From: Acidobacteriota bacterium
GTDB lineage: Bacteria > Acidobacteriota > Aminicenantia > Aminicenantales > Saccharicenantaceae
Direction of reading: 5' to 3'
DNA length: 64,000 bases
Assembly (NCBI GenBank): GCA_029571905.1
Contig: JAKPXU010000148.1
Coordinates: 18,225 to 82,224 of the forward strand
Every line of letters starts with the position of its first letter. The first letter of the stretch is position 1. Positions 12,031-59,439 of the stretch are shown piece by piece. The translations under genes and the position numbers were made by a program. Under the pieces are notes generated by a model. The model made no database searches. It worked only from the letters and a program-made list of their open reading frames with translations, and was not told the origin of the DNA.

Positions 12031-12105
12031 CTTATTCTGGTATCTTTTATTTTAAAACGCAAAAAACATATAACTCTCAAAACCTGACTGCCGAGGAGAA
12101 AAAGA

Positions 12106-25714: not shown

Positions 25715-26066
25715 GGGGGCGAAATGGACTCGACGGAGGTAGTGAAGCAGAAGCTGCAGGCCGAGGTCCCATCAACCTCGTTAAACAGGTGGGAAAAAAT
25801 TAACTGCAGAACCTGTTGCAGTCGCTGCCTGATAGAAAGTGCAGCCGTCTCCGCCAGCTTTTCCTGCGGGCTGGTCGAGACGCCGTTGAGCAGGATAGTC
25901 TGGCGGGCGTGCTCAGGGCTCGCTGGATGAACTAGCTCTTGAGCTGGTTGAGTGATGCTCTTCCTCTTCGAGAATCGCTCAATGAGATGCAAAGAAGAGG
26001 ATAAGCCTGTAGAGGCTAACTGTGGAATGCCTCCGGACGCGGGTTCGATTCCCGCCGCCTCCACCA
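25715..26066 (+). ncRNA. ssrA: tmRNA (SsrA)
   Basis: The 5' GGGGGCG pairs with the 3' CGCCTCC-A-CCA, including the G3:U alanine identity pair. There is a tRNA-like T-arm (GGGTTCGATTCCC). An internal reading frame GCA GAA CCT GTT GCA GTC GCT GCC TGA TAG gives a tag ending ...AVAA. Confidence 0.85.
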
Positions 26067-27942: not shown

Positions 27943-29277
27943 ATGAGCAGGATTAATAAATTACCACGGGTAGTTATTCTGGGCTATCCCAATGTGGGCA
28001 AGTCTACCCTTTTTAATCGGTTACTTGGCCAGCACAAAGCTCTGGTCCATTCTATGCCAGGTATGACCAGAGATCTGGTGACTGGAGTGGTCAAGCAAGC
28101 CGGCCGGGAATATCTTCTGGTTGATACGGGTGGCTTTGCTGGAGACGAAACAGATCCTATTTCGATCAGAGTTCGCGACAAAGCTCTGGAAGCGGCCAGC
28201 GCCGGGGATGTGTTAATTTTCCTGGCTGATGGCCAGCGTTCCCTGTCGAGAGGGGAAGAAGAATTGTTTCTTCAGCTTAAAAAGCTCAACCGGCCAGTTC
28301 TGGCTGTGGTCAATAAAATCGACAGCCTTCATCGCCAACCAGATCTGTCTGATTTTTATCGGCTGGGCCAGAGCGAGTTGCTGACGATATCAGCTGAACA
28401 CAAGATTAATCTTGACCTGCTGCAAGAAAGGATCGTGGATCTTCTTCCAACTCGTCCTGAGATTAAAACAGACAAAAAAAGCGAAGAAAATATTTTAAGG
28501 ATAGCCATTGTTGGCCGGATTAATGTCGGGAAGTCATCACTCATCAATCGCCTCTGCGGAGAGGAAAGACTTCTGGTCAGTGAAATACCTGGAACTACCA
28601 GGGACAGCATTGATACTCTGATCAGCAGAAACAAGAAGACCTATTGTCTGATCGATACGGCTGGCATCAGAAAATTCAGCGGGACGAAGGATTCAAGAGA
28701 AAAGGCGGGAATTATCAGGGCAGAAAAGAATATCAAAGAGGCCGATGTCATCTGCCTGGTGATGGATGTGCAGGAATTTCCCACCAGGCAGGATGCCAGA
28801 ATCGCAAGTCTGGCCTTTGAGTCAGGTAAACCCCTAATTATAGCCTTGAATAAATGGGATCTGGTTGAAAAATCAAGAGTCAAGCCGGCCGAAATAAGAA
28901 AATATGTTTTTGAAAGATTACACTTTGTTGATTATGCACCGCTCATATTTGTTTCTGCCCTGACCGGACAGAGAGTTGTCAGGATACTGGATCTGGCTGA
29001 AGAGGTTTATCAGGCCGCTTCCAGGACAATTGAGACTCGCCTCCTCAACCAATTCTGGCAGAAATTTTCTAGCCAGTACCCACCCCGGGCTTTTAACGGG
29101 TCTCCGCTTAAGATTAAATATATGGTTCAAAAGGGAGTCAAACCGCCGGTGTTTATTCTGTTCGGCCATAGTCAAAGCCGGCTGAGCCCGGCCTATGAAA
29201 AATTCCTGGCTGATAGCTTCAGGAAAAACTTTAAGTTAAACGGTACACCCGTAGTTTTTAAGGTTCGCCGGGGATGA
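27943..29277 (+). CDS. der: Ribosome-biogenesis GTPase Der (EngA)
   Basis: Tandem G-domains (GYPNVGKST and GRINVGKSS P-loops) plus a C-terminal KH-like domain. Confidence 0.93.
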   Translation: MSRINKLPRVVILGYPNVGKSTLFNRLLGQHKALVHSMPGMTRDLVTGVVKQAGREYLLVDTGGFAGDETDPISIRVRDKALEAASAGDVLIFLADGQRSLSRGEEELFLQLKKLNRPVLAVVNKIDSLHRQPDLSDFYRLGQSELLTISAEHKINLDLLQERIVDLLPTRPEIKTDKKSEENILRIAIVGRINVGKSSLINRLCGEERLLVSEIPGTTRDSIDTLISRNKKTYCLIDTAGIRKFSGTKDSREKAGIIRAEKNIKEADVICLVMDVQEFPTRQDARIASLAFESGKPLIIALNKWDLVEKSRVKPAEIRKYVFERLHFVDYAPLIFVSALTGQRVVRILDLAEEVYQAASRTIETRLLNQFWQKFSSQYPPRAFNGSPLKIKYMVQKGVKPPVFILFGHSQSRLSPAYEKFLADSFRKNFKLNGTPVVFKVRRG

Positions 29278-29377
29278 CTTTTGCTGGCCAAACTTCATTT
29301 TTTCTTGACTTTAGGGCTATATTCTTATATAAATTTATTCTAAATTATTATTAGAAGCCAGATGTTTTAAGGAGGTC

Positions 29378-30391
29378 ATGATGTCTCGTCAGAGGATAAA
29401 CAGCTTGGCCGTTATCTTTTTAGCCTTAGCTGTTCTTGTGACCGCAACCAGTTGCGAGAAGCTTAAGGTCAATAATTTACAGGCTAATTATCATTTTAAG
29501 AAAGCTAATAACCTGTTCAGAGAGGGTAAATATCGTAATGCAGTCACTGAGTATGAGCTGGCTTTAAAGTACAAGCCGGATCTGGTGCAAGCCTATCGCT
29601 ATATTGGTGAAAGTTATAAGCAGCTTTATAAACCCGGTGTCCAGACACCCCTGAACAAAGAATTCGAAACCAAAGCCCTGGAAGCCCTGACCAAGGCTCT
29701 GGAGATTGATCCCAATAACATTGAGATCATCTATTCACTGGGTGATATGTATGATAAACTCAGAAAATTTGAGGAGGCCGAAAAGCTCTATTTAAGGATT
29801 CTGGAGCTTGATCCTCAGAACATGGATAACTTCTATGTGGTGGCTGAGTTCTATAGCCGCTATGCTGGCGAGATCCCTGATGCTGCCAAGAAGGCGGAAA
29901 CGATGTATCTTCGCCGGATAGAAGCTGATCCTGAGAATCCGATAGGCTATGCTTATGCAGCCAATTATTATGAGCATCTGCCAATTACAGAACAAAATAT
30001 AGAGCAGGCTCTCGAAAATTATGATAAAGCCAATATGTTCTGGGAGAAAAGGATAGCTCTTACTCCGGATGATCCTCAGGCCTGGCTGGCCAAAGGGGTA
30101 AATCGCTGGGGGCGTGCTTACCGCTTCCAATCATTGCCGGCGGCCGAGAGATTGGCCATTGCCAGAGAAGCTCTTCAGGCCATCGAAAAAGCCAGAGATC
30201 TCGATCCGAATTATCCTGAGCCATATGCCTGGTTAAGTGTTCTGTATAGAAGCGTTTTGTCTGTTCTTGAACCGGATAAAGCTGCCCGCTATACGGCTGA
30301 GGCCGATAAAAATATTGAAAAATTTAATAGCCTGAGAACCAAGGCAGCTGAAAAGAAAAAGCTCGAAGAAGAGTTAAAGAAAGTAGATTAA
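29378..30391 (+). CDS. TPR-repeat lipoprotein (function unknown)
   Basis: Signal peptide ending in a Cys (VTATSC) followed by multiple TPR-like repeats. Confidence 0.55.
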   Translation: MMSRQRINSLAVIFLALAVLVTATSCEKLKVNNLQANYHFKKANNLFREGKYRNAVTEYELALKYKPDLVQAYRYIGESYKQLYKPGVQTPLNKEFETKALEALTKALEIDPNNIEIIYSLGDMYDKLRKFEEAEKLYLRILELDPQNMDNFYVVAEFYSRYAGEIPDAAKKAETMYLRRIEADPENPIGYAYAANYYEHLPITEQNIEQALENYDKANMFWEKRIALTPDDPQAWLAKGVNRWGRAYRFQSLPAAERLAIAREALQAIEKARDLDPNYPEPYAWLSVLYRSVLSVLEPDKAARYTAEADKNIEKFNSLRTKAAEKKKLEEELKKVD

Positions 30392-30456
30392 CCAACTGGA
30401 AAGTTGATTCAGGGGCAGGTTGAGATAAATCAACCTGCCCTTTTTTATTTATTTAG

Positions 30457-31134
30457 ATGTTTATCCCATTAAAAGATGAAAATCCAACCGAAAAGTTCCC
30501 TGTTATCACGGTCTGTTTAATTGCCCTCAATTGTCTGATCTTTGCTTATCAAGTTTTGTCACCTCAGGGTCTCGAATATTATGTTCTTAAATTTGGTATT
30601 ATTCCCTATGAAATAACACATTGGAACTTCCAGCCGGGTCTGCCCAGAGTGGCCTGGCCGCTGAGTTTATTAACGGGAATGTTTCTTCATGGCAGTCTCT
30701 GGCATCTTGGCGGTAATATGCTTTATCTCTGGATCTTCGGGAATAACGTGGAAGATGTTCTCGGTCATTTTCGTTACCTATCTTTATATCTGGTCTCCGG
30801 ACTGTCTGCCTCCCTGGTCCAGACTATTTTTTCTCCTAATTCCAGGATGCCGATGATCGGAGCCAGTGGGGCCATTGCCGGTATGCTCGGAGCTTATCTT
30901 GTTTTGTTCCCCTCGGCCAGGATCAAAACGCTGCTTTTTCTTTTTATTTATGTAACTATAATTTATGTTCCTGCCTGGATCTTTCTCGGACTGTGGTTTG
31001 CTATGCAGGTAGCTAATGTTGGCCTGGGGGGCGGCGTGGCCTGGTTTGCTCATGTTGGCGGTTTTTTAACTGGCTCGGCCTGGGTATGGCAGAGATTGAG
31101 AAAAGGCCTTAATGTCCATAATTATTATTCCTGA
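30457..31134 (+). CDS. Rhomboid-family intramembrane serine protease
   Basis: Six TM helices, the GASGAIAG catalytic Ser motif, and AHVGGF with the catalytic His. Confidence 0.85.
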   Translation: MFIPLKDENPTEKFPVITVCLIALNCLIFAYQVLSPQGLEYYVLKFGIIPYEITHWNFQPGLPRVAWPLSLLTGMFLHGSLWHLGGNMLYLWIFGNNVEDVLGHFRYLSLYLVSGLSASLVQTIFSPNSRMPMIGASGAIAGMLGAYLVLFPSARIKTLLFLFIYVTIIYVPAWIFLGLWFAMQVANVGLGGGVAWFAHVGGFLTGSAWVWQRLRKGLNVHNYYS

Positions 31135-31268
31135 TCTTATCTTGAATTTAGAAGGAAGAAAGACTATAATCAATTTCTTTAAAAGCTCGGTCTTGTTGAC
31201 AATTTAGTCATATTTTAGTATTTTTAGCAAGCATTATTGTTGTATTTTTTTAAAGACAGGTTGGAAAA

Positions 31269-31697
31269 ATGAAGACTTATCATCCCAAAAAAGATGAAAT
31301 TCAGCAGAAATGGTGGCTTATCAATGCTGACGGTCAGATTCTGGGCAGACTGGCCACGGCAGTGGCCGTTCTTCTCCGTGGCAAGAACAAACCACAGTTT
31401 GCTCCGAATGTGGATAGCGGAGATTTTGTGGTAGTCATTAATGCTGACAAGATAAAAGTCACGGGGAACAAACTGGAAGATAAGATTTATTATCATCACA
31501 GCCTTTATCCTGGCGGTTTGAAGGAGACCAGACTTAAAGAGATGCTGGATACCAAACCAGAGGAAGTCGTTCGGCAGGCGGTCCGGGGGATGATACCAAA
31601 AAACAAACTGGGCCGTTCGATTTTGAAAAAGCTTAAGGTTTATAGGGGAGCTGAACATCCGCACCAGGCACAGAACCCTGAAGAATACAGGATATAA
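31269..31697 (+). CDS. rplM: 50S ribosomal protein L13
   Basis: [20 protein letters not shown]... is canonical L13. Confidence 0.95.
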
Positions 31698-31712
31698 GAT
31701 TAAGGAGGAACC

Positions 31713-32117
31713 TTGAGTCTCATTCAATACTATGGAACTGGAAAACGAAAAAACGCTATCGCCAGGGTCTTTCTTCGCTCCGGCAAGGGAGATATTACCC
31801 TGGTGGTTAATAAGAAGATTCATCCTTATGAGGAATATTTTAAAGTAGAATCCTTGCGCATCCTTATTAATCAACCTTTAGTGCTGACCGAAACCGACAA
31901 GAAATTTGATATTTTTATGAGGATCGAAGGCGGGGGAATACACGGTCAGGCAGAAGCGGTTAGACTGGGTATAGCCCGAGCCCTGCTTGAATTCAATAGA
32001 GACCTTAAACCCATTCTGAGAAATGCTGGTTTGCTGACCAGAGACTCTAGAATTAAAGAGCGGAAGAAATATGGCTTGCTGGCGGCCAGAAAGGCACCAC
32101 AGTATCATAAGAGATAA
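31713..32117 (+). CDS. rpsI: 30S ribosomal protein S9
   Basis: Canonical S9 with the C-terminal basic tail ...YHKR. Confidence 0.95.
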   Translation: MSLIQYYGTGKRKNAIARVFLRSGKGDITLVVNKKIHPYEEYFKVESLRILINQPLVLTETDKKFDIFMRIEGGGIHGQAEAVRLGIARALLEFNRDLKPILRNAGLLTRDSRIKERKKYGLLAARKAPQYHKR

Positions 32118-32141
32118 AGATTTAGCGGTGGAGGGATAGCT

Positions 32142-32936
32142 TTGGTTTCAGTTATGATGAAAGAATTGTTAGAAGCTGGCGTTCATTTCGGGCATCAGAC
32201 CCGGCGCTGGAATCCTAAGATGAAAGAATACATCTTTGGACAGAGGAATGGAATCTATATAATCGATCTGCAGAAAACCATTAAGAACTTCAAAGAAGCA
32301 CTGCAATTTATCAGGACGACGGCGGAAAACGGCCGGGAGATACTTTTTGTTGGTACCAAAAAGCAGGCTCAGGATATTATTAGAGATTATGCCACCAGAT
32401 GTGAATCAAGCTATGTCAATCAGCGCTGGCTTGGCGGTTTGCTGACCAATTTCAAGACGATCAGGGCCAGCGTTGATAAATTGGTTGAAATGGAGGAGAT
32501 GAGGGAAGATGGCCGCTGGGATCTTCTGCCCAAAAAAGAACAGTACCGGCAGGAAAAAATATATAGAAAGCTACAGAAAAATCTGGGTGGATTGAAACGG
32601 TTGACCGAGCTGCCCGGTGCGCTTTTTATAATTGACTCTTCTAAAGAGCAAATTGCCATTGCTGAAGCCAAAAAGGTTGGGATTCCAATTGTGGCCGTGG
32701 TTGATACCAATGGTGATCCGGAAGGAATAGATTATCCTATCCCCGGTAATGACGATGCAGTCAGAGCCATAGAACTTTTTGCCTCCAAAGTGGCCGAGGC
32801 CATAATTGAAGGTAAAAAGGCCAGACTGGCTCAGGGTATGATGGAAGAAAAAAAGGAAGAAGTAACAGCAGAAGTTCCAGTGTCACCAGAAGAAAATGAA
32901 GCTGAGCCTGTCATCAAAACAGAAAAAACCGAGTAA
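32142..32936 (+). CDS. rpsB: 30S ribosomal protein S2
   Basis: [19 protein letters not shown] is canonical S2. Confidence 0.95.
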
Positions 32937-32956
32937 CTTTCTTAAAGGAGAAGACC

Positions 32957-33553
32957 ATGGAGATAACCGCTCAACAGGTTAAAGAATTAAGAGATAGAAC
33001 AGGAATCGGGATGATGGAATGTAAGGAGGCTCTGCAGGAAAGCGGCGGAGATATCGAAAAAGCTATCGAAATTTTGCGAAAGAAAGGCCATGCTCGGGCC
33101 CAGGAAAAAGCTGAGCGCCAGGCTGCCGATGGGGTCATCGGAGCCTATATTCATGCCAACAACAGACTTGGTGTTCTGATTGAGGTCAACTGCGAAACGG
33201 ATTTTGTGGCCCGCAATGACGAATTTAAAGAATTGGTTAAGAATCTGGCCATGCAGGTAGCTGCTTCTAATCCGACTTATATCTCGAGTGAAGATGTTCC
33301 AGCTGAAGTGATTGAGAGAGAAAAAGAAATTATCAGAGCTCAAATACAGGAGGCTAAAAAGCCGCCTCAAATTATTGAGCAGATTGTCGAAGGTAAACTG
33401 AAGAAGTTTTTTGAAGAAGTTTGCCTGCTCGATCAACCCTACATCAGAGAGGATAAGATCAAAGTCCGGGATCTGGTCAATACCCATATTGCCAAATTTG
33501 GTGAGAATATCAAAATCAGGCGATTTGTTCGCTATGAAATTGGTAAATACTAG
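32957..33553 (+). CDS. tsf: Elongation factor Ts
   Basis: UBA-like N-terminus (ITAQQVKELRDRTGIGMMECKEAL) and an EF-Ts dimerisation core. Confidence 0.93.
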   Translation: MEITAQQVKELRDRTGIGMMECKEALQESGGDIEKAIEILRKKGHARAQEKAERQAADGVIGAYIHANNRLGVLIEVNCETDFVARNDEFKELVKNLAMQVAASNPTYISSEDVPAEVIEREKEIIRAQIQEAKKPPQIIEQIVEGKLKKFFEEVCLLDQPYIREDKIKVRDLVNTHIAKFGENIKIRRFVRYEIGKY

Positions 33554-33568
33554 ATTGGTCTATAGACA

Positions 33569-34288
33569 ATGAGCGAGGGGCAGCCGGCTTATAGGCGGGT
33601 TCTCCTGAAGCTGTCAGGAGAAGCTATGCGGGGGGAGCTGCCTTATGGAATTGATTTTAAGCGGGCGCGGTCCATTGCCCATGAACTGAATGAAATTCAT
33701 AACCTGGGCGTGGATATTGCTATCATGATTGGCGGCGGCAATATCTTTCGTGGTTCTCAGGGTGTGGCCGAAGGAATGGACCGGGTAACAGCCGACCACA
33801 TAGGCCTGCTGGCCACAGTCATTAACGGGCTGGCATTGCAGGATGCCCTGGAAAAGGAAGGTTTGGTCACCAGACTTATTTCGGCCATAGAAATCAAAGC
33901 TGTGGCCGAGCCTTTTATTAGAAGGCGTGCCCTGCGTCATCTGGAAAAGGGGCGAGTGGTTATTTTTACGGCCGGTCTGGGCAGTCCTTATTTTACGACA
34001 GATACGGCAGCTGTTCTTCGAGCTCTGGAAATTAAAGCTGAAGTCATTCTGAAGGCGACTAAGGTGGATGGCGTTTATACAGCCGATCCGATGATCGATG
34101 CCGGCGCAACCAGATTTGAATCCATCAAATTTCTGGAAGTGATGCAGCAGGAACTCAAGGTCATGGACAGCACGGCTATCAGTCTTTGCAAGGATAATAA
34201 TCTTCCCATCATTATTTTTAATCTAAATCAGCCGGGCAATATTATGAAAGCCGTTCTAGGCGAGAGAGTTGGTACCAAAATTTCATAA
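33569..34288 (+). CDS. pyrH: UMP kinase
   Basis: [10 protein letters not shown]...GGGNIFRG is the amino-acid-kinase fold PyrH signature. Confidence 0.93.
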
Positions 34289-34320
34289 TTCTGGCTGAGA
34301 TCAATTAGAGGAGGGCAACC

Positions 34321-34878
34321 ATGGTCAGAGAGGTTTTGAGAGATACTGAAAAAAAGATGAAGGCTTCAATCGATTATTTTCGCAAGGAAATAAGCAAATT
34401 GCGTACCGGCCGGGCTAATATCAGTATTTTTGAGGATATAAAAGTTATATATTATGGAACGCCAACGCCAATTAATCAGGTGGCAACGATTGGCGTCCCT
34501 GACCCAACCTTAATTACCGTTCAACCCTGGGATCCGAGTTTGATGGAAGCAGTGGAAAAAGCTATCCGGGCTTCTGATTTCGGTTTTAATCCAATCAATG
34601 ACGGCCGGGTGATTAAAGTGCCGGTACCGCCGCTAGATGAGGAAAGACGGCAGGAATTGGCTAAAAAAGCCAATAAAATGCTGGAAGAGGAAAAAACCGC
34701 TCTTCGCAATATGAGAAGAGAAAGCAAAGAGTATATCGAAAAGTTGGAGAAGGATAAGAAAATTACCGAAGACGATAAATTCCAGGCGCTGGAAAAACTA
34801 CAGGAACTGCTGGATGAATATATCAGGCAGGCGGAAGAAATAACTGCGGCTAAAGAAAAAGAAATTATGGAAGGCTAA
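34321..34878 (+). CDS. frr: Ribosome recycling factor
   Basis: 185 aa canonical RRF (the RTGRANISIFEDIKVIYYG region). Confidence 0.93.
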   Translation: MVREVLRDTEKKMKASIDYFRKEISKLRTGRANISIFEDIKVIYYGTPTPINQVATIGVPDPTLITVQPWDPSLMEAVEKAIRASDFGFNPINDGRVIKVPVPPLDEERRQELAKKANKMLEEEKTALRNMRRESKEYIEKLEKDKKITEDDKFQALEKLQELLDEYIRQAEEITAAKEKEIMEG

Positions 34879-45179: not shown

Positions 45180-47423
45180 GTGAGAAGAGAAGATGCTTTA
45201 AAAAAGTTTTTAAGCTTTTCAATTCTGCTAATTGTTTTGCTTGGTAGCTCCAGTGTCCCGGGGCTGGCTGCTCCCAAAAAAATTATCTATCTGGATGCCT
45301 CTATTTTACCTGAGGGTTCATTAAAAAGATGGCATAATCTGGGCACAATTGGCGGCGATTTTATACCTGTCTTTCGAAGTTTGCCCTCAGTACAGCAGGT
45401 AAGTGGCCAGAAGGCGGTTAATCTAACCGGTCGGGATGTTTTACTCCGGTCAACTTTTGTTCCACCCTCGCACCTTAATGATCAGAAACCATTTACCATT
45501 TTGGCGAAGATTTATTTTAATGAATTAGGTCAGCGCCAGATAATACTTAACTGGTCACAAGAGCCTGAGAATTCAGCTATATTTGGGCTGGGCAAAGGGC
45601 TGGATGCCGCTTTCTATAATTCAGTTAAGAACAGACTGGGATATAAGGGAGGCTTTCCTCTACAAAAAACCTGGCATCTACTGGCCCTGGTTTACGATGG
45701 GCAAAAAATAAGCATCTATGTTGATGGCTGGCTTAACAGCCAGGTTGATGGACCACTGAACATCAAACCCGGCAAATTCATTTATCTGGGCGGACAGGTC
45801 GTCACTGGCTTTCCTCTGCCTTTTGATCCATTCAATGGTTGGCTGGCCTCTCTGGAAGTTCTGGATGAGGCTCTAAGTCCGGTGACCATCTGGAATCTAG
45901 CCGGCCACAATCAGGCCATCCCATTGTATCCGGCGGAGGGAGAGGTTCTTGCCTCGACGTCAGTTAATCTCAGGTGGGAAAAAGGTGATGAGCGGGCGGC
46001 CAGTTTTTCAGTTTTCTTTTCTTCTTCCAGGTCAGAGGTGGAAAGTGGCGAGAGAAAGGCAGCCAAAGGAAATGTCTCTGGAGAAATAAAAAGTTATGAA
46101 CTCAGCGGACTTCAAATTGGCCAGGTTTATTTCTGGCGAGTCGATCAGCTGGATGCCAGAGGAAATTTACTGCAGGCTGGACTGACCAGGAGCTTTTCGA
46201 TTGACAGTGGCTCAGCCAGGAATCCATCTCCCCATAATCTGCACGGCAGCACTCCTTCCGACTTAAAGAGGCTGCAGTGGGAGGCCGGCCCGTGGGCAAC
46301 CTCCCAGGATATTTATTTCAGTTCAGATCTTAAAAAATTAGAAAAGAGCAAACCGGCAGCAAAAGGAATTAAGCCGGGTTCTGACTTTTTTTATCTGCCG
46401 GAAAAAGAACTTGATTATGGCCACAGCTATTACTGGAAAGTGACGACCAAAAATGACCGTCTGCCCGAATCTTCAGGTCAGGTTTGGTCTTTTCGGGTAC
46501 GGGATCAACCCACTGACAAAGACCTGACTTTTTTTGTCGCCTCTGACCTCCATTATGGCGGAACGGTTAATTATCGGAAATTGAACAGGGTGATGGTAGA
46601 GGCTATGAACTCTGTTCCCGGCCAGCTTTATCCTGAAGGTCAGGGGGTGAAAGGCAAAGTTCACACTCCCCGCGGAGTAGTTATTACCGGAGATATAGTT
46701 GATGATGGCTCTGCCCTTGATATAGAAAAGATCTGGCAGGAATACAGCGAGGACTATGGTCTAAATGGTGAAAAACTTCTGGCTTTCCCTATCTACGAAG
46801 GTTTTGGCGAGAGCGATGGTCCTTCTTCTGCACTGGTCAGAACCAACCTGAAAAGACGTAACCGCTTGCGGCCAGATCTCAGAAGTATTTCGGCTGATGG
46901 CCTCCATTATTCCTGGGACTGGGGTCAGGTCCACTTTGTTCAGCTGAACCTTTATCCAGGCAGTGTGGGCGAAGAATATCTGAATATCTGGAGAAGAAGG
47001 GTCAGTGGCGATGCCCGCTATCCGAAGCACAGTCTGGAATTTTTAATTGACGATCTGAGGCGAAATGTCGGCAACAGCGGACGACCGGTAATTCTGTTTC
47101 AACATTATGGCTTCGATTCCTGGAGTGAAGCTTTCTGGACAGAGAGGGAAAGGAATGCTTTCCTTCAGGCTATTCAACCCTATAATATAATTGCGATTTT
47201 CTGGGGGCATTCAGAAGTTCCTCAGGGTTTTAGCTGGAATGGCATCAAGACCTGGTGTGCCGGAACGACCAATCATGATCCTGATCCTGGAGAATTTCTG
47301 GTAGTGAAGATTACTACCGGCCGAAAAAGTGGCCAGCTAGTGGTGGCTACCAGGAAAGTAGACGGCTGGGGTTCGGTGGATAAGATAACTTTTCCCCTTA
47401 AAAAAACCGCCCAAAAAAGATAG
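45180..47423 (+). CDS. Secreted multidomain protein: LamG-like lectin domain, two FN3-like domains, calcineurin-like metallophosphoesterase
   Basis: Signal peptide (possible GTG start), a LamG/ConA-like segment, FN3-like segments as in purple acid phosphatases, and phosphoesterase motifs (FFVASDLHYGG, ITGDIVDDG, FWGHSE). Confidence 0.68.
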   Translation: MRREDALKKFLSFSILLIVLLGSSSVPGLAAPKKIIYLDASILPEGSLKRWHNLGTIGGDFIPVFRSLPSVQQVSGQKAVNLTGRDVLLRSTFVPPSHLNDQKPFTILAKIYFNELGQRQIILNWSQEPENSAIFGLGKGLDAAFYNSVKNRLGYKGGFPLQKTWHLLALVYDGQKISIYVDGWLNSQVDGPLNIKPGKFIYLGGQVVTGFPLPFDPFNGWLASLEVLDEALSPVTIWNLAGHNQAIPLYPAEGEVLASTSVNLRWEKGDERAASFSVFFSSSRSEVESGERKAAKGNVSGEIKSYELSGLQIGQVYFWRVDQLDARGNLLQAGLTRSFSIDSGSARNPSPHNLHGSTPSDLKRLQWEAGPWATSQDIYFSSDLKKLEKSKPAAKGIKPGSDFFYLPEKELDYGHSYYWKVTTKNDRLPESSGQVWSFRVRDQPTDKDLTFFVASDLHYGGTVNYRKLNRVMVEAMNSVPGQLYPEGQGVKGKVHTPRGVVITGDIVDDGSALDIEKIWQEYSEDYGLNGEKLLAFPIYEGFGESDGPSSALVRTNLKRRNRLRPDLRSISADGLHYSWDWGQVHFVQLNLYPGSVGEEYLNIWRRRVSGDARYPKHSLEFLIDDLRRNVGNSGRPVILFQHYGFDSWSEAFWTERERNAFLQAIQPYNIIAIFWGHSEVPQGFSWNGIKTWCAGTTNHDPDPGEFLVVKITTGRKSGQLVVATRKVDGWGSVDKITFPLKKTAQKR

Positions 47424-47449
47424 ATTTTTAAACTTTCTAAATTTTCTGG

Positions 47450-48601
47450 CTAACTGGTTATCTTGTATTTTAAAAAGGCGCCTATATTCCCATAGCGTTT
47501 CAATCTGGTTGGAGGAGTGGTATGGTAGACAGGCATGCCTCTGGTAAAGGCGACTTCGACCGCTTCATCAACAATATCAGCCACTGGCTCAGTTTTAGCC
47601 TGGCAGAGGAGACAGATTTCTTCATTAAGATACACACTATGGCACTTAGGACAAACCCTGCCTGGATGAGAAAAATTATGGGTGATGAGCAATGCTTGGG
47701 CTTCAAATGAATTTATTTTACGCAGCGTGTCAGCCAGCCCGGCTATGGCCAGTCCACCTCGCTCCAGCTCATCAATAAATTTCCCGACCAGTTCTTCTTC
47801 CTCTGCTCTTTTCAGCTGTTCTTCAAACTCCGAACATTCTTTAAGTATTTTCGATTCGGGAGTGTCTATCCTGGCTTTAATTCTCCCTTTGAGTCTTTCC
47901 CTGACATAGGAGTGAAATAGAGATTCAAGCTGCGAATAAAACTCATCATCGCAGCCAACCAGCAGCCAATCAAATTGGTTGTGTTTGAGCAGTTCAAATG
48001 TTTTTTCTGCCGACTTTTTGAAATGTTCGAGAAGATGAGCTTCAATGTGTCTTTCTATTTTCTTTGATTCATAGCCTTCAAAACCACCTTTTTTGACCTG
48101 TTTGGGGACATTACTCTCCAGACTATCAATGAGCTTTATTTCCCCGAGGTAAACCTCGTACCATTTAGCTTCCTTCCTATTAATCAAAAGCACGCACATC
48201 TTTTTAAATCTTTCCAGGACAGCGGTTAACGGCCTGGTATAAAAATCGAAGTCCATTATTATCCGGTTGCGCGGGCCATGCGGTAGTTCCATGTCCAGCC
48301 AGTAATTGAGACCGGAACAGGAAAAGATAGCCAGCCCCGGTGATTTTAACGGGCTGAGTTTTTTCTGACAGAATTGAGAGATTTTTTCCAGGTCGGACTG
48401 AAGGGAATTTTTTATTTCAGGAGAGAGGTTTTTCTCCTCAAGTTGTTTTTTGGCTTGATTGATCAGGGCTTTGCTGGCAGCATTAATAGCTTTGAGTGTT
48501 TGCTGACTCTTATCGGTATTCAGATAAAAACTAGTTGCCTGATAGGGGTGAGTTTTAAAACGCGCCAACTCTTCGATTTGGGAAGAACTGGATAATTTCA
48601 T
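47450..48601 (-). CDS. Bacterial eRF1-family (aeRF1/Pelota-like) protein with Zn-ribbon insert; GGQ replaced by GGF
   Basis: 383 aa. Domains 2-3 are colinear with eukaryotic eRF1 from memory (CVLLINRKEAKWY vs FIVIDGSGALFG; KKGGFEGY vs GRGGQSAL; GNIGAFLKY vs GGIGGILRY), with a CPKCH...CLLCQ ribbon inserted in domain 3. Confidence 0.62.
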   Translation of the reverse strand: MKLSSSSQIEELARFKTHPYQATSFYLNTDKSQQTLKAINAASKALINQAKKQLEEKNLSPEIKNSLQSDLEKISQFCQKKLSPLKSPGLAIFSCSGLNYWLDMELPHGPRNRIIMDFDFYTRPLTAVLERFKKMCVLLINRKEAKWYEVYLGEIKLIDSLESNVPKQVKKGGFEGYESKKIERHIEAHLLEHFKKSAEKTFELLKHNQFDWLLVGCDDEFYSQLESLFHSYVRERLKGRIKARIDTPESKILKECSEFEEQLKRAEEEELVGKFIDELERGGLAIAGLADTLRKINSFEAQALLITHNFSHPGRVCPKCHSVYLNEEICLLCQAKTEPVADIVDEAVEVAFTRGMPVYHTTPPTRLKRYGNIGAFLKYKITS

Positions 48602-48880
48602 GGTTTACCTCCTCCTATAAATTAAAAATCAGGATCTAATTACTGAATATTGTTTTGAGGGACAAGTTGCTATTAAAGCCACTAAATTTAAATTAGTATT
48701 ACAACTGACTTTTGTCAAGTTCGTGTATCTGATCAAAGACAGTTCGATTACTTTTGGCCTGATTTACCTCGACAGGTTCATCAGCCTCAGCCTTGAAAAA
48801 GGCTCTGATTCTGCAATTTCTCTCCTTTACAGTGCTGCTAGAAATCTATATAATTATTTTGATTTGATCATAAGCCGGTT

Positions 48881-48967
48881 GCGGAAGTGGCGGAATCGGT
48901 AGACGCGTAAGCCTCAGGAGTTTATGGCCGAAAGGCTGTGTGGGTTCGAGTCCCACCTTCCGCACCA
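48881..48967 (+). tRNA. tRNA-Leu (CAG)
   Basis: 87 nt. The acceptor GCGGAAG pairs with CTTCCGC, the anticodon loop is CTCAGGA, there is a long variable arm, and CCA is encoded. Confidence 0.88.
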
Positions 48968-48978
48968 ACCTTTTACCC

Positions 48979-50349
48979 ATGTTCTCTCGTAAGCACCTTC
49001 TACTGTTAAATCCCTGGGCCTACGATTTTACTGCCTGTGATTTCTGGTTAAGACCTCTTGGCCTTCTCTATCTGGCGGCCATCGTCAGACAATACACTGA
49101 TTATGAACTGGACTTTATTGACTGCCTGGACAGCAGTCAGATAGAATCCGGCTATTATTTTAGGCCGAAGAACCGGACAGATGGTCGCAGCTCATTTTTT
49201 AAGGAAGAAGTGACAAAACCGGAGATTTTTCGTCATATTCCAAGAAAATATTCTCGTTACGGTTGGCCTTATGCTCAGGTAGAATCAAGGCTGGAGAAGA
49301 TCCCTGCGCCGGCGGCTGTCCTCATAACCTGTACTCTGACTTACTGGTATCCAGGGGTTCAGGCGGCGGTAGAGCTGGTACGCAAAAAATTTGGCAATAT
49401 CCCGATAATTCTGGGAGGTGTCTACGCCACTCTCTGTCCCGAACATGCTCAATCGCAGTCTGGAGCTGATCTGATTTTAACCGGTCCCGGTGAGAATCAA
49501 ATTCTCCGTATTCTGCAGGAAATAGATGGGAAGGATCAATTTAAATCAAAGAATGAATTGCCTGTCTTTCCGGACTTTGATTCGTTACCTTCTCCGGCCT
49601 ATGAGCTGAGTCACAATACTTCAGTTCTGGCTCTTCTTACCTCTCGGGGCTGTCCATTTCACTGCAGTTATTGTGCCAGCCGGCTGCTTTACCAGCGGTT
49701 TGAACAGAGACAGCCAGAGAAAGTAGCCGCCGAGATCGAGTATTTCCGGCAGAATCTTGGGACAGAACAGATCGCTTTCTATGATGACGCTCTGCTTATC
49801 AATAAAAACCACCATTTAATAAAAATACTGGAAGCTCTAACGGATTCGAAGGAAAAGTGGCGTTTTCACACTCCTAATGGTCTTCATCCGAGGGAATTTG
49901 ACCGGGAACTGGCCAGATGGCTAAAAATCTCAGGCTTTGACTCTTTATTTCTCAGCCTCGAAACCAGCGACATTAATTTGCTGGCAGAGACAGGAGCCAA
50001 GGTCAGCCCTGAAGATTTAGAACGGGCTCTTGGTTATCTGGAAGGGGCTGGCTTCTGCCGCAGCCAGATATCAGTTTATCTGCTGGTTGGCCTGCCTGGC
50101 CAGGACAAACAACAGGTAGTGGAAAGTATAAGATTTGTCAGAGCGTTGGGGGCCAGGCCAAGGCTGGCCTATTTTTCTCCTGTTCCGGGGACAGCTGATT
50201 GGAAAAAGCTGGTAGATTCGGGTCAGCTCAAGGAGGATTCAGATCCTTTGCTTCAGAATAAGCTGGTTTTCCCTTATTTCTGGAGTCAATTTACCCCGGA
50301 AGATCTGGATGAAATAAAAAAAGAAGCGACCGGGAAAAATATAGGTTGA
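48979..50349 (+). CDS. B12-binding-domain radical SAM protein
   Basis: An N-terminal cobalamin-binding-like domain, then the CPFHCSYCAS radical SAM CxxxCxxC motif. The ORF-track start overlaps the tRNA; the first plausible ATG is at 48979. Confidence 0.78.
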   Translation: MFSRKHLLLLNPWAYDFTACDFWLRPLGLLYLAAIVRQYTDYELDFIDCLDSSQIESGYYFRPKNRTDGRSSFFKEEVTKPEIFRHIPRKYSRYGWPYAQVESRLEKIPAPAAVLITCTLTYWYPGVQAAVELVRKKFGNIPIILGGVYATLCPEHAQSQSGADLILTGPGENQILRILQEIDGKDQFKSKNELPVFPDFDSLPSPAYELSHNTSVLALLTSRGCPFHCSYCASRLLYQRFEQRQPEKVAAEIEYFRQNLGTEQIAFYDDALLINKNHHLIKILEALTDSKEKWRFHTPNGLHPREFDRELARWLKISGFDSLFLSLETSDINLLAETGAKVSPEDLERALGYLEGAGFCRSQISVYLLVGLPGQDKQQVVESIRFVRALGARPRLAYFSPVPGTADWKKLVDSGQLKEDSDPLLQNKLVFPYFWSQFTPEDLDEIKKEATGKNIG

Positions 50350-56022: not shown

Positions 56023-57816
56023 ATGCAAAAAAACATTCGCAACTTTGCCATCATTGCCCATGTGGATCATGGGAAAAGCACTCTGGCCGATCGTTTTATC
56101 GAATTGACTGGAGCTCTTTCCAGCCGTGAACTCCGAGAACAGGTCCTCGATACTATGGACATTGAGCGGGAACGTGGCATCACCATCAAGGCTCAAACTG
56201 CCAGATTGAAATATCGCAGCCGTTCCGGCCAGGAATATATCCTCAACATGATTGATACTCCCGGGCACGTCGATTTTTCCTATGAAGTTTCTCGCAGTCT
56301 GGCCGCCTGTGAGGGAGCCGTCCTGGTCATTGATGTTTCTCAGGGGGTTGAAGCTCAAACCCTGGCCAATGCTTATCTGGCTATCCAGAACGACCTGGTT
56401 ATCATTCCAGTGATGAATAAGATTGATCTCCCCCAGATTGATCTTGACCTGGCCCTCGAGCAATTAGAACATATTGTCGGGCTGAAAAAAGAGGAGGCCC
56501 TGCTGGTTTCAGCTAAAAAGGGCATGGGCATCGAAGATGTTCTGGAAGCAATTGTGGACAGAATTCCGCCTCCTAAAGGTGAGGTTGAAGCTCCACTGAA
56601 AGCCCTGCTTTTTGATTCCTGGTTCGATCCTTACCGGGGAGTAATTGTCCTGGTCAGAATAATTGATGGCTGCCTCCGAGTGGGCGATCGGATCAGGCTG
56701 ATGTCTAACGGGGCCGAGTATCTAGCTGAAGAAATAGGCTACCTTACCCCCAAGCCAGTCAAGGTGGAGGCTCTGGAAACGGGCGAAGTTGGCTATCTCA
56801 TTGCCGGCATAAAAAATCTGGCTCATGCCCGGATAGGTGAAACTATCACCCTGGCCAATCGTCCAGCGGCTGAAGCTTTGCCCGGCTTTAAAGAAGCCAA
56901 GCCAATGGTTTTCTGCGGTCTTTATCCAGCCGGCGATACCAATATAGATGAACTGCGTGATGCGCTGGAAAAGCTGAGACTCACCGACGCTTCTCTGCAC
57001 TTTGAACCAGAACATTCACCGGCTCTCGGCTTTGGCTTCCGGGCTGGTTTTCTCGGTCTTCTTCATCGTGAAATTGTTCAGGAAAGACTGGAAAGGGAGT
57101 TTAATCTAAATTTGATCACGACCGCTCCCAGCGTCAGTTACCGGGTGGTTAAGACCGATGGCGAAGTGCTCGAGATTCATAACCCATCAGAACTGCCAGA
57201 GCCGCAGTTCATTGAGCGCATTGAAGAACCGATCATTGAGGCTTTAATTTTGACGCCTGATCGCTATCTCGGGCCGCTGCTCCAGCTGCTTGATGATCGG
57301 CGTGGCCAGCAGAAAAAGATGGAGTATATTTCTACCAATCGAGTTATACTGGATTATTTGATTCCGCTCAACGAAGTTGTTTTTGACTTTTATAACCAGC
57401 TTAAATCACTTTCCCAGGGGTATGCTTCAATGGATTATGAGCTGGTCGGCTATAGAGAAGAGCCTCTGGTCAAGCTCGATATCCTGGTCAATTATGAAGA
57501 AATTGATGCCTTATCAGTCATTGTTCATAAAGATAAGGCTTATTATGTCGGCCGGGCATTGGTGGATAAACTGCGGCGGGCAATTCCCCGTCAACAATTC
57601 GAGGTAATCATTCAGGCCGCGGTAGGAAAAAGAGTCATTGCCCGTGAAACTGTCAAACCTTTTAGAAAAGATGTTCTGGCCAAACTTTATGGCGGAGATT
57701 ATACCAGGAAAATGAAGCTTCTGGAAAAACAGAAAGAGGGCAAGAAAAGAATGAAAAGAGTGGGGCGGGTTGATATACCTCAGGAGGCTTTTCTGGCTAT
57801 TCTGGAAGTCAAATAA
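56023..57816 (+). CDS. lepA: Elongation factor 4 (LepA)
   Basis: G1-G4 motifs ([21 protein letters not shown]) and the unique LepA C-terminal domain. Confidence 0.95.
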
Positions 57817-57928: not shown

Positions 57929-58522
57929 GTGGAAGAGAAAAAGTTACAGACTTTTTTAAAACAGTCGGCAGAAATCTTAAAAGATTTTTTTCCACCTGAC
58001 ACTTCAGCTCTCATTCCACTTCTCTATTCGACCTTGATCTGGACGACAAAAAGAAAGGAAAATTTAGAAGAAGAAGTTTCCGGGCTCAGGCTCTGGCTCG
58101 AACCAGAAATCGTGGATAACAAACCGGATGAATTTATCCTCGATTTTTTTGAAAAACGATCAGACCTCAGGGAAGCTTTTGAGAATGAAATTAAGAGCAG
58201 CGATATGAAATCGCTCCGCCTGGCATTTAGAGGTTTATATCCCGTAGTGGGGCTGGAGGAACCTTTTCTTCAAAGCCTTTTTTCCGAGGAGCTGGCTAGA
58301 GGCGACTACCGCCTTATTGCCGATCAATTTGATTGGAAGTTAAACCAGGCACTCGATGAGATAAAGGCCGCAGAAAAAAAGCCGGAGTTATGGGCGGTAC
58401 TCAAAAAAATAGGAGAAAGTTTTTTAAGTCTGAGCTGGGCCTGGTTGAGTGATGACGAGTTGAGAGACTGGCTTAAGCTTTTCCTTGGCATCAACCGGCA
58501 AGGTGAGGAGGAAGAAGAATGA
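57929..58522 (+). CDS. Hypothetical protein (197 aa)
   Basis: Clean ORF with an acidic C-terminal tail and no recognisable motif. Confidence 0.45.
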   Translation: MEEKKLQTFLKQSAEILKDFFPPDTSALIPLLYSTLIWTTKRKENLEEEVSGLRLWLEPEIVDNKPDEFILDFFEKRSDLREAFENEIKSSDMKSLRLAFRGLYPVVGLEEPFLQSLFSEELARGDYRLIADQFDWKLNQALDEIKAAEKKPELWAVLKKIGESFLSLSWAWLSDDELRDWLKLFLGINRQGEEEEE

Positions 58523-59439
58523 AGAGGCAGACAATCAATTTTGACAACGGCGATTCCAGCCGTAATACTCGCTACAAAAGGCAAGTGGCCAGAGGCTTTT
58601 ATTGGCGGCCAGCATTAATTTTCTTTTTAGCCGGTTTTTTTATAAGTTGTGCTTCCTCATCACTGTTAAGGGCCAGGACAGATTATCTTCAGGCACAAAA
58701 ACTCGAGCGTTCGCTTCGTCAGGCGGAAGCAACAGCTTTCTATAAAAAGACGAGAGAGGAAGTATCAGCCGCCATCAATCAGAAGCCAACGGCCGAAGCT
58801 TATCTCCTGAAAGGGCTGGCCGAGGTTAACTTGAATCTCTGGGAAGAAGCTGAAAATTCATTTCGGCTGGCTGCTGCCCTGGGTGAGGACAAAGCCCTGG
58901 CCTGGGCAGAAGAGCTAAGACTTTATGGTCTGGCCCGCTCTTTTGAAGCTCAGGGCTGGGCAGAGACCTCCGGCCGCCTGTATGAAATTCTGGCTGATAA
59001 GGGAAAATATCTTCCGGTGGTGAGAGTGGCCGTGGGCCAGCTGGTGGATCTCAAACTTAAGGCTCTCTCTGAGATGGAAAAGAATTCTTCTCCTTCTCAA
59101 AAAGAAAGGGACAAAATTCTGGCTGACGCCATAAAAATAGTAGAGCAGGCAGTTGAAAGCGAGCCGGCCTATGGCTATTATCATTATCTTTTAGCTCAGG
59201 TTCTGGCTCATCAAAAGGATTATGGAGAGAGTCTGGAAGAGGCAGTCATGGCTAAAGAATTAGGTCTGCCGTCAGAAAAAATTAATCGTGATAATGATCT
59301 CCAGATAGTTTTTTGCTATGAGCAACTGGGGAAAAGTCTCTCCGGGGAAGAACTGACTGTTTTCCAGCTGAGGTATAATAACTGGGTCAAAAAATGGAAG
59401 TGGCAGAACGAAACCACTCCCGACTGGCAAAGGAGCTAA
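58519..59439 (+). CDS. Hypothetical single-TM protein with TPR-like repeats
   Basis: A 4-nt overlap with the upstream ORF, one TM helix ([14 protein letters not shown]), then TPR-like helices. Confidence 0.45.

Follow-up and report, generated by a model that had tools for sequence, protein, structure and literature searches.

A baeRF_family10 protein of Aminicenantes with a Gly-Gly-aromatic loop and an intact zinc ribbon, probably a Balon-type ribosome-silencing factor

A gene on the reverse strand of the DNA analysed here (the window, a stretch of 64,000 nt to whose positions all coordinates refer) encodes a member of the bacterial aeRF1 clade, specifically of the baeRF-1 clade and of Pfam baeRF_family10, and its product is probably a Balon-type A-site factor, serving the reversible silencing and protection (hibernation) of ribosomes in starvation or stress. 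It is a fairly ordinary representative of a family that has already been catalogued and that includes a proven ribosome hibernation factor; the protein has two old-fashioned features: its zinc ribbon is intact, and its Gly-Gly-aromatic loop shows tight conservation.

Family membership and domain organization

The start codon of the 383-residue open reading frame is ATG, and M1 is unchanged in 52/52 aligned homologues. The AF2 model has a pLDDT of 90.5 and, taken together with full-length matches to Msmeg1130, Balon and aRF1, it reveals the standard three-domain architecture of aeRF-1 proteins (N-terminal, middle and Pelota-like C-terminal domains). The features of the gene and its surroundings are as follows:

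47450..48601, minus strand: coding sequence, including the stop codon, of the 383-residue baeRF_family10 protein (eRF1-like, probably Balon-type); from the open reading frame list and Pfam
48242..48601, minus strand: N-terminal domain, approximately residues 1-120, a β-sheet and a helical hairpin by AF2 secondary structure; counterpart of the eRF1 stop-codon domain
47828..48241, minus strand: middle (RNase-H-like, 'GGQ') domain, residues 121-258; from the PF18854 match, the eRF1_2 match being sub-threshold
48047..48109, minus strand: putative peptidyl-transferase-centre loop V165-H185, VPKQVKKGGFEGYESKKIERH, supported by conservation; GGF at 48080..48088
47453..47827, minus strand: C-terminal (Pelota/eRF1 domain 3-like) domain, residues 259-383; eRF1_3 aligned over 266-381, sub-threshold
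47588..47662, minus strand: zinc ribbon insert G314-E338 with predicted ligands C317, C320, C330 and C333; from Cys conservation and the aRF1 alignment
47465..47491, minus strand: C-terminal motif GNIGAFLKY, residues 371-379, counterpart of eRF1 GGIGGILRY; from the HMMER alignment
48608..48615, minus strand: Shine-Dalgarno sequence GGAGGAGG, 6 nt upstream of the ATG
48602..48880, no strand: divergent intergenic region of 279 nt shared with tRNA-Leu, presumably holding both promoters
48881..48967, plus strand: tRNA-Leu(CAG), the divergent neighbour, outside the protein and given for context; from ARAGORN and Rfam

PF18854 (baeRF_family10) is matched by residues 121-258 with a score of 65.1 bits against a Pfam cut-off of 27.1 (E=1.1e-17), and it is present in all 120 homologues among the matches listed. 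The family profile matches aRF1 (4af1) over residues 60-363 with E=2e-12, and Msmeg1130 with E=7e-6. Given the PF18854 and 4af1 values, the similarity to eRF1-type proteins lies far beyond chance, and the alignment given in an earlier note on this DNA was not spurious: HMMER reproduces all three of the eRF1 block matches proposed there, and the open reading frame, PF18854 and HMMER bear out its description of an eRF1-like protein with GGF for GGQ and a CPKC...CLLC ribbon in domain 3. The placement among aeRF1/Vms1-like families holds for the baeRF-1 clade and fails for the Vms1/VLRF1 clade, as the Pfam models for Pelota and VLRF1 are unmatched and there is no GxxQ/GGxSQ motif. Nor is the family 'very rarely annotated', as had been supposed, since it comprises 3,827 representative clusters and relatives carry source labels such as 'baeRF10 domain-containing protein' or 'peptide chain release factor subunit 1 (eRF1)'. 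Purifying selection is strong, with a mean column identity of 66% and dozens of invariant residues.

Within the N-terminal domain, alignment to eRF1 and conservation among close homologues reveal neither of the stop-codon motifs NIKS and YxCxxxF: 'IIMDFDF' lies opposite 'YLCDNKF' of eRF1, changing YxCxxxF to IxMxxxF, and the hairpin tip (57-60) is variable among close sequences. The alignment of the domain to Msmeg1130 is better than that to aRF1 and places 'YTRPL' opposite 'FIHPL' and, thus, R123-P124-L125 opposite 'HPL'. In close homologues, R123 and P124 are nearly invariant and L125 is invariant; family-wide, P124 is conserved at 86% and L125 at 96%. In Balon-type factors, an HP motif (given without residue numbers) touches A1492/A1913 (PMC10901736).

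In the middle domain, HMMER places the loop, in which KKGGFEGY spans residues 170-177, opposite 'LPKKHGRGGQSALRFARLR' of eRF1 and 'VPGKQRKGGQSAQRFARLR' of aRF1, and 'dwllvgcddef' opposite 'aGLVLAGSA-DF'. The Pro-to-GG spacing is that of eRF1. Across 121 close sequences, the glycines are almost unvarying (G172 in 119, G173 in 120 and G176 in all 121), and position 174 is F, W or Y (74, 27 and 19 sequences, respectively); moreover, the loop is exactly 21 residues long in 79 diverse representatives at ~29% identity, of which 91% keep the aromatic residue and 92% the Gly that comes next. As the loop is three residues longer than in eRF1, the gap placement is ambiguous and two alignments are possible, with eRF1 Gln185 falling opposite F174 (single-sequence alignment) or Y177 (profile alignment), an aromatic residue rather than Gln in both. 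Gln is absent from the GGQ position of all 120 close homologues, and the 21 residues contain no conserved Gln at all, Q168 being variable (K78/R27/Q16 in the 121 close sequences). The loss of the catalytic Gln noted earlier is therefore upheld, albeit not as a private Gln-to-Phe change, because GG-aromatic (W/F/Y) is the family-wide state; the same observation answers the objection that the family might prove to carry a canonical GGQ. After the loop, the basic and His residues R184, H185 and H193, on the following helix, are conserved family-wide; such residues have been taken as a sign of large-subunit rRNA contact and A-site insertion (PMC6514570, Burroughs and Aravind).

A sister subgroup of family 10 carries GGW[S/A]Q, with the Gln two residues past the aromatic in 80%. 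These short-loop proteins (e.g. P0218, P0234 and P0242) score 108-114 bits with PF18854 and 43-47 bits with the Pfam model acVLRF1. They agree with the window protein in PF18854, the aromatic after GG, the zinc ribbon, the RH that follows the loop and the C-terminal motif, but their loop is three residues shorter and has the conserved Gln that the window subgroup lacks. This Gln is probably the one meant when family 10 was singled out for a well-conserved glutamine in the catalytic loop and named a possible hydrolase (PMC6514570). It is a descriptive trait, however, and the Pfam family is defined without it.

The C-terminal domain profile matches Pelota, aRF1, eRF1, Msmeg1130 and Rv2629. Its ribbon, with CPKCH at residues 317-321 and CLLCQ at 330-334, is modelled at a pLDDT of 92-95 and is predicted from the sequence to bind zinc: among 121 close sequences, C317 and C330 are present in all, C333 in 118, and position 320 is C in 88 and H in 31, whereas in 132 diverse representatives the four Cys are conserved at 98/92/98/95%. 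The CxxC...CxxC pattern lies opposite the ribbons of aRF1 4af1 and 3ir9 ('CSVCG...CPKCG') and the start of the human mini-domain. The ribbon does not, then, replace the eRF1 mini-domain, as the earlier note had it; it is the ancestral insert at the mini-domain site, retained whole by archaeal aRF1 (3ir9; PMC6514570). The human mini-domain and the Balon β-loop are cysteine-poor or cysteine-free structures at this same site. Towards the C-terminus, 'lkrygnigaflkyki' is aligned opposite 'VKGFGGIGGILRYRV', and across the family the conservation of G374, A375, L377 and R/K378 is 81-95%.

Upstream region and genomic setting

GGAGG precedes the gene in 82/83 orthologous loci, compared with 9/45 (20%) of the ATG-start open reading frames of the window. 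The 279-nt upstream region matches no Rfam family and contains no consensus sigma-70 site for the minus-strand gene (the site count is no higher than in shuffled sequence), and across the class no sequence conservation was found there beyond the Shine-Dalgarno sequence. The divergent tRNA-Leu(CAG) described in the earlier note is confirmed, and it lies divergently upstream in 74/77 related loci.

The gene has an orthologue throughout the Aminicenantes, where it is a stand-alone gene whose synteny is fixed across 80 genomes, in a block where it stands between rSAM-GWxTD-OMP and the AcrB operon; it sits in a core housekeeping region together with tmRNA, Der, L13-S9-S2-Tsf-PyrH-RRF and LepA. That a core, vertically inherited gene has a perfect Shine-Dalgarno sequence in 82/83 loci would fit a protein needed in ribosome-like amounts. 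The neighbour survey suggested in the earlier note gave no recurrent partner, and no HPF/RaiA or stress-gene neighbour, in the window, the 83 orthologous loci or five more distant family members; in the latter, which lie outside the Aminicenantes, the neighbours are non-recurrent. There is no adjacent gene for a partner ATPase or GTPase, and PADLOC found no defence-system match.

Proposed function and alternatives

We infer that the three-domain, eRF1-shaped protein would bind the 70S ribosome and occupy its A site independently of stop codons, with the N-domain at the decoding centre. The GG-aromatic loop would reach the peptidyl-transferase centre, leaving the peptidyl-tRNA unhydrolysed, and the C-domain with its zinc ribbon would face the factor-binding site, where its contact would probably be EF-Tu; the physiological role would be that of a hibernation factor. 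A-site binding without classical hydrolysis, leading to arrest, was already suggested in the earlier note; this has been shown for the nearest structural neighbours, Balon, Msmeg1130 and Rv2629 (PMC10901736).

Several observations support the Balon-type reading. PF18854 is common to the window protein and Msmeg1130, the sequence of which (PDB 8V9J) it matches at 106 bits, and it is also matched by relatives of Msmeg1130. The Gln, NIKS and YxCxxxF are absent, as in Balon, Msmeg1130 and Rv2629, for all of which the absence of NIKS and GGQ has been described (PMC10901736). Moreover, the N-domain aligns to that of Msmeg1130, including R123-P124-L125, and R184, H185 and H193 are conserved in the manner associated with rRNA contact (PMC6514570). 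Other observations weaken it: the scores fall short of the NCBIfam hibernation-factor cut-offs, identity to the solved Balons is only about 14-15%, and the sequence profile is nearer to aRF1 than to Msmeg1130. Additionally, the loop differs from both the 'AGQ' loop of Msmeg1130 and the Balon lasso, and it has GG at the eRF1 spacing under strong length constraint, a pattern tied to catalytically active families (PMC6514570). The lack of an HPF/RaiA or stress-gene neighbour counts in the same direction.

Tentatively, and with less confidence than we place in the Balon-type function, the long-loop zinc-ribbon subgroup could form a class with a mechanism of its own, surviving as an intermediate between aRF1 and Balon. 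A GG turn spaced as in eRF1 could allow the loop to extend as far into the peptidyl-transferase centre as GGQ does. There, the aromatic residue might enter the hydrophobic A-site cleft, mimicking the aromatic side-chain of an aminoacyl-tRNA or puromycin, or else might stack on A2602 or A76; inserted or stacked, it would seal the centre against water. Alternatively, the loop might still promote release through its backbone. The zinc ribbon, for its part, would recruit EF-Tu through a surface unlike the Balon β-loop.

It is rather unlikely that the protein is an active, stop-codon-independent peptidyl-tRNA hydrolase or rescue factor, in which the GG turn would position the backbone as in eRF1/RF1/RF2 and the Gln side-chain would be dispensable. 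Substitutions of the GGQ Gln in bacterial release factors are said, by Shaw and Green in 2007, often to keep substantial release activity, the glycines being essential, and here the GG is nearly invariant, with the Pro-to-GG spacing of eRF1. The fixed 21-residue loop, and its active-family pattern, would also suit a hydrolase, as would the naming of family 10 as a possible hydrolase (PMC6514570) and the resemblance of the sister GGW[S/A]Q proteins to VLRF1 GGxSQ, reflected in their acVLRF1 matches. However, the loop of the window subgroup has no Gln (Q168 is not conserved) and a bulky aromatic stands at its position; the top three structural matches are all hibernation factors without hydrolytic activity, and Msmeg1130, which also carries PF18854, acts as one. 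Furthermore, stop-codon recognition motifs are absent, and the genome has tmRNA for rescue.

An A-site binder with some other ribosomal purpose, such as Pelota-like subunit splitting, quality control acting on ribosomes that have stalled or been damaged, or a functional link to tRNA-Leu(CAG), seems improbable. The retention of the divergent tRNA gene is equally explained by vertical synteny of the whole block, and although one distant family member adjoins an NYN/YacP nuclease gene and a PDDEXK gene, neighbours outside the Aminicenantes do not recur. Rescue roles have been proposed for baeRF-1 proteins (PMC6514570), but in structure the protein resembles Pelota far less than the Balons, and the adjacent gene for a partner ATPase or GTPase is missing. 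That the protein belongs to a defence or conflict system, or is a non-functional relic, is barely credible: the diversification of baeRF-1 has been linked to biological conflicts and lateral transfer (PMC6514570), yet there is no PADLOC match, the region is core housekeeping with fixed synteny across 80 Aminicenantes genomes, and purifying selection is strong.

The Aminicenantes, a class of Acidobacteriota, are abundant and uncultured, and they occur in sediments and anaerobic digesters. If the Balon-type reading is true, their translation apparatus includes a Balon-type A-site factor as a core component that is passed on vertically, and Balon-type hibernation extends to this uncultured lineage. 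The subgroup also offers a useful case in which to study how a release factor became a ribosome silencer, and to ask whether the peptidyl-transferase centre is blocked or still activated by a GG-aromatic loop. As regards annotation, the label 'peptide chain release factor subunit 1' is inappropriate for such genes.

Comparison with known systems

In structure, the protein is closest to Balon, Msmeg1130 and Rv2629, with aRF1 and Pelota further away. By sequence, all three NCBIfam equivalog models for hibernation factors fail, with 54.3 bits for AOC03_06830 (cut-off 330), 44.4 for MSMEG_1130 (480) and 18.2 for Rv2629 (320); TIGR03676 (aRF1/eRF1) also fails, at 54.3 versus 234.7 bits. The supplementary text of the Balon paper mentions neither Aminicenantes nor Acidobacteria (PMC10901736).

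Msmeg1130 (MSMEG_1130; 8V9J/8V9L; PMC10901736), the mycobacterial Balon homologue, was compared as a sequence rebuilt from PDB alignments (residues 12-227 and 85-361), its C-domain being aligned via a bridging sequence. It shares with the window protein PF18854, an alignable N-domain, the absence of NIKS and of a canonical GGQ, and a C-domain insert of equal length at the equal site. In contrast, its short 'AGQ' loop reads 'APQERAGQMREQRQ', and its ribbon site ('VRYVGTVGADGSLYADGEIAPHSHAA') has no Cys where the window protein has four that are conserved. Balon of Psychrobacter urativorans (8RD8/8RDV/8RDW) and Rv2629 (8V9K) each have an NCBIfam family of their own, and the window protein scores far under the cut-off of both. 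The features of Balon include a bL27 trap, a lasso loop that surrounds A2602 and a β-loop that binds EF-Tu(GDP) (PMC10901736), none of which is recognizable by sequence in the window protein: its loop is compact and eRF1-like, and the intact four-Cys zinc ribbon takes the place of the cysteine-free β-loop. NIKS and GGQ are absent, as in Balon-type factors, but both glycines are kept. Balon genes often adjoin raiA or stress genes (PMC10901736), whereas the window gene does not.

Similarity to Pelota/Dom34 and Vms1/VLRF1 is much weaker, and the GxxQ or GGxSQ motif is absent. Archaeal aRF1 (4AF1 of H. salinarum; 3IR9, the C-domain of M. mazei) and eRF1 provide the best sequence-profile match, the same Pro-to-GG spacing and the C-terminal G-x-IGA/G-x-LRY motif, and aRF1 has a zinc ribbon at the equal site with its Cys aligned. 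Unlike these factors, the window protein has no catalytic Gln, NIKS or YxCxxxF, and it comes from a bacterium, in which termination is expected to use RF1/RF2. Overall, we conclude that the subgroup, with its GG turn at the eRF1 spacing and its intact zinc ribbon, is the most aRF1-like form among the relatives examined.

Gene and genomic setting

The gene for the eRF1-like window protein stands on its own in a core region shared with tmRNA, Der, L13-S9-S2-Tsf-PyrH-RRF and LepA; this density of core translation genes places it in a housekeeping part of the chromosome. The tmRNA gene shows, moreover, that trans-translation, the standard rescue system, is available to the organism.

Features of the locus
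47450..48601, minus strand: ORF of the window protein, 383 aa, ATG start (ORF list)
48608..48615, minus strand: GGAGGAGG, 6 nt 5' of the ATG (sequence)
48881..48967: tRNA-Leu(CAG), divergent to the gene
25715..26066, plus strand: tmRNA, tag peptide AEPVAVAA (Rfam, 195.7 bits)
27943..34878 and 56023..57816: translation-gene-dense region (Der/EngA GTPase, L13, S9, S2, EF-Ts, UMP kinase-type AA_kinase, RRF, LepA)

The genome is that of a Candidatus Saccharicenans (Aminicenantes, Acidobacteriota), the best matches being 97-98% identical, and the best 80 of 271 relatives in the species-representative genomes scanned are all from Aminicenantes. Synteny is fixed in the Aminicenantes loci: radical-SAM/B12, GWxTD and outer-membrane barrel genes lie divergently upstream, and the gene's 3' end faces a convergent RND efflux operon, with a lectin/metallophosphoesterase gene intervening in Saccharicenans. 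The divergent tRNA-Leu(CAG) described in the earlier note is indeed present, and adjoins the gene directly in 74 of 77 loci; vertical synteny explains this linkage as well as function does. No HPF/RaiA or stress gene was found adjoining the gene in the window or related loci, and distant family members share no neighbours, theirs being unrelated; genomic context thus offers no functional clue. Of 83 orthologues, 82 have a perfect GGAGG ahead of the start codon, as against 9 of 45 genes in the window, which suggests selection for efficient translation, as would befit a protein required in ribosome-like amounts.

Several further observations concern this and related loci. As listed, the radical-SAM/B12-binding ORF (48940..50349, plus strand) has a GTG start that overlaps the tRNA-Leu gene; its true start is probably an internal Met at about 48979, and its homologues are annotated as 447-452 aa long, against 469 aa listed in the window. 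Only 26 nt (47423..47450) separate the end of the baeRF10 gene from that of the convergent lectin/metallophosphoesterase gene; no terminator-like hairpin was found between these ends, and the 3' ends of the two transcripts may overlap. For two adjacent plus-strand ORFs (57929..58522 and 58519..59439; 197 and 306 aa), Pfam yields nothing at E<=1e-5. Two contigs (L007 and L008) of one MAG (JAQURD01, Acidobacteriota STD1_65) each contain the syntenic locus in full, ~80% identical to the window, suggesting strain mixing in the bin or duplication. An Aminicenantes metagenome contig (L003) encodes, at 12005..12077 (minus strand), a bona fide tRNA (Rfam, 54 bits) with the anticodon loop CU-UUA-AA, whose anticodon UUA would read the stop codon UAA (ochre-suppressor type); it adjoins tRNA-Leu(UAG), a phage-type integrase gene lies 1-2 kb away, and such a UUA tRNA occurs in only 1 of 83 related loci. 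Lastly, 89 nt upstream of the gene for a distant long-loop family 10 member (P0127), and co-directional with it, lies an NYN/YacP nuclease gene (YacP is the Rae1 ribosome-dependent RNase family), and a PDDEXK-family gene starts 3 nt downstream; this cluster, encountered here only in two near-identical contigs (L087, 5427..10280; L088, 1602..6370), is possibly a ribosome/RNA-directed operon.

Family assignment and the GG-aromatic loop

Residues 121-258 match Pfam baeRF_family10 (PF18854) with 65.1 bits (E=1.1e-17; gathering threshold 27.1 bits), and eRF1 domains 2 and 3 give sub-threshold Pfam matches. All NCBIfam matches are weak and fall far under their cut-offs: aRF1/eRF1 (TIGR03676), 54.3 bits against 234.7; and, for the hibernation-factor families, AOC03_06830 (Balon), 54.3 against 330, MSMEG_1130, 44.4 against 480, and Rv2629, 18.2 against 320. 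Family 10 was defined by Burroughs and Aravind (2019; PMC6514570), who derive the bacterial baeRF-1 clade from one early archaeal aRF1 transfer; no later paper on the family was found in the one literature collection searched. When residues 12-227 of mycobacterial Msmeg1130 were reconstructed from the PDB sequence alignment and searched against Pfam, PF18854 was matched with 106 bits, and it is also present in Msmeg1130 relatives in the protein collection; the window protein and a factor with a solved ribosome-bound structure therefore belong to one Pfam family. An exhaustive profile search returned 3,827 representative clusters, of which 623 reach E<=1e-30. The earlier observation and the gist of its interpretation stand, but the view that such families are very rarely annotated does not: baeRF_family10 is catalogued, large and has a structurally characterized member.

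The motifs quoted in the earlier note are all present (KKGGFEGY at residues 170-177; CPKCH from 317; CLLCQ from 330), and HMMER reproduced its eRF1 alignments of the GG loop, the 'LVLAGSADF' strand and the C-terminal 'GGIGGILRY' block. In none of the 120 closest homologues (49-97% identity) is Q found at the position of the GGQ glutamine, the residue there being F, W or Y; G172, G173, E175, G176 and I182-E183-R184-H185 show little or no variation. Two loop forms predominate in a diverse set of 132 full-length representatives (median pairwise identity 29%).

Predominant loop forms in the diverse set
Long (the window protein's), 21 aa, n=79: VP-x-[KRQ]-V-[RK]-x-[GA]-G-[WFY]-x-G-[YL]-x-[ED]-[RK]-[RK]-I-x-R-H; aromatic 91%, next Gly 92%
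Short, 18 aa, n=30: VPG-[RK]-H-x-Q-GGW-[SA]-Q-x-R-x-QRH; Gln 80%

No gaps are needed to align the short form with eRF1 GGQSALRFARLR, its Trp then facing the catalytic Gln, and proteins bearing this form match PF18854 with 108-114 bits and also acVLRF1. As both forms carry an aromatic after GG, this is the family-wide state. The 'well-conserved glutamine' for which family 10 was singled out (PMC6514570) is probably that of the short form, two residues after the Trp; the window protein's subgroup has no Gln anywhere in the loop. Placement of the 3-residue insertion is ambiguous, such that eRF1 Gln185 faces F174 or Y177 depending on the alignment, neither being Gln. Msmeg1130 differs from both forms, with a short 'APQERAGQMREQRQ' loop.

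The zinc ribbon

C317, C320 (Cys or His), C330 and C333 are kept in 118-121 of 121 close sequences and in 98, 92, 98 and 95%, respectively, of the 132 diverse representatives, placing them among the family's most conserved residues. They align with the cysteines of the archaeal aRF1 ribbons 'CPNDH...CSDCG' (PDB code: 4af1) and 'CSVCG...CPKCG' (PDB code: 3ir9), and the human eRF1 mini-domain begins at the same point. The ribbon is thus a retained ancestral feature, and not, as first proposed, a replacement of the mini-domain. At this site, Msmeg1130 has an equally long segment without cysteine, 'VRYVGTVGADGSLYADGEIAPHSHAA', corresponding to the two-strand insert read by Burroughs and Aravind as a degenerate ribbon (PMC6514570); we infer that it is the beta-loop contacting EF-Tu in the Balon paper (PMC10901736).

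Mechanism and comparison with ribosome-bound factors

Balon from Psychrobacter urativorans and the mycobacterial Msmeg1130 and Rv2629 are eRF1-like ribosome hibernation factors that lack both NIKS and GGQ and occupy the A site without mRNA dependence; EF-Tu(GDP) is seen alongside Balon and Msmeg1130 (Helena-Bueno et al. 2024, PMC10901736). All three precede the release factors in the structural comparison.

Structural comparison of the window protein (rank, protein and the two values returned)
1, Msmeg1130: 28.1, 365
2, P. urativorans Balon: 24.0, 334
3, Rv2629: 20.0, 314
4, aRF1: 15.5, 263
5, eRF1: 15.1, 263
Lower ranks, Pelota/Dom34: <=13.3

Foldseek agrees, its top match being ribosome-bound Msmeg1130 (TM 0.73/0.74, E=2e-25).

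With non-hydrolytic hibernation factors as its nearest structural neighbours and no loop Gln, the window protein is most likely a Balon-type factor that occludes the A site and so protects idle ribosomes, a reading we hold with reasonable confidence. Beyond fold and family, we infer every step: the N-domain would sit at the decoding centre and read no stop codon (it has neither NIKS nor YxCxxxF), the middle domain would direct the GG-aromatic loop and a basic/His helix (R184, H185, H193) to the peptidyl-transferase centre, and the C-domain with its ribbon would face the GTPase-factor site. It is rather doubtful, although conceivable, that the aromatic reaches eRF1 depth and there plugs the A-site cleft, in a mode distinct from the Balon lasso loop.

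In bacterial release factors, the Gln side-chain is reportedly not strictly needed for release; given also that GG is kept at the exact eRF1 spacing and that the loop is far more constrained in length and sequence than Balon-type loops, active release or rescue retains some standing, but is unlikely in view of the missing Gln and the non-hydrolytic neighbours. Such loop constraint is, by the argument of Burroughs and Aravind, typical of active hydrolases (PMC6514570). Other A-site roles are less probable still.

A-site occlusion remains our preferred reading. In contrast to the structural ranking, sequence profiles place aRF1 (4af1; E=2e-12, residues 60-363) ahead of Msmeg1130 (E=7e-6), because the middle-domain loop and zinc ribbon are aRF1-like, whereas the N-domain resembles that of Msmeg1130. 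The window protein is, overall, a further member of a large, catalogued family, and has itself retained two notable aRF1-like features.
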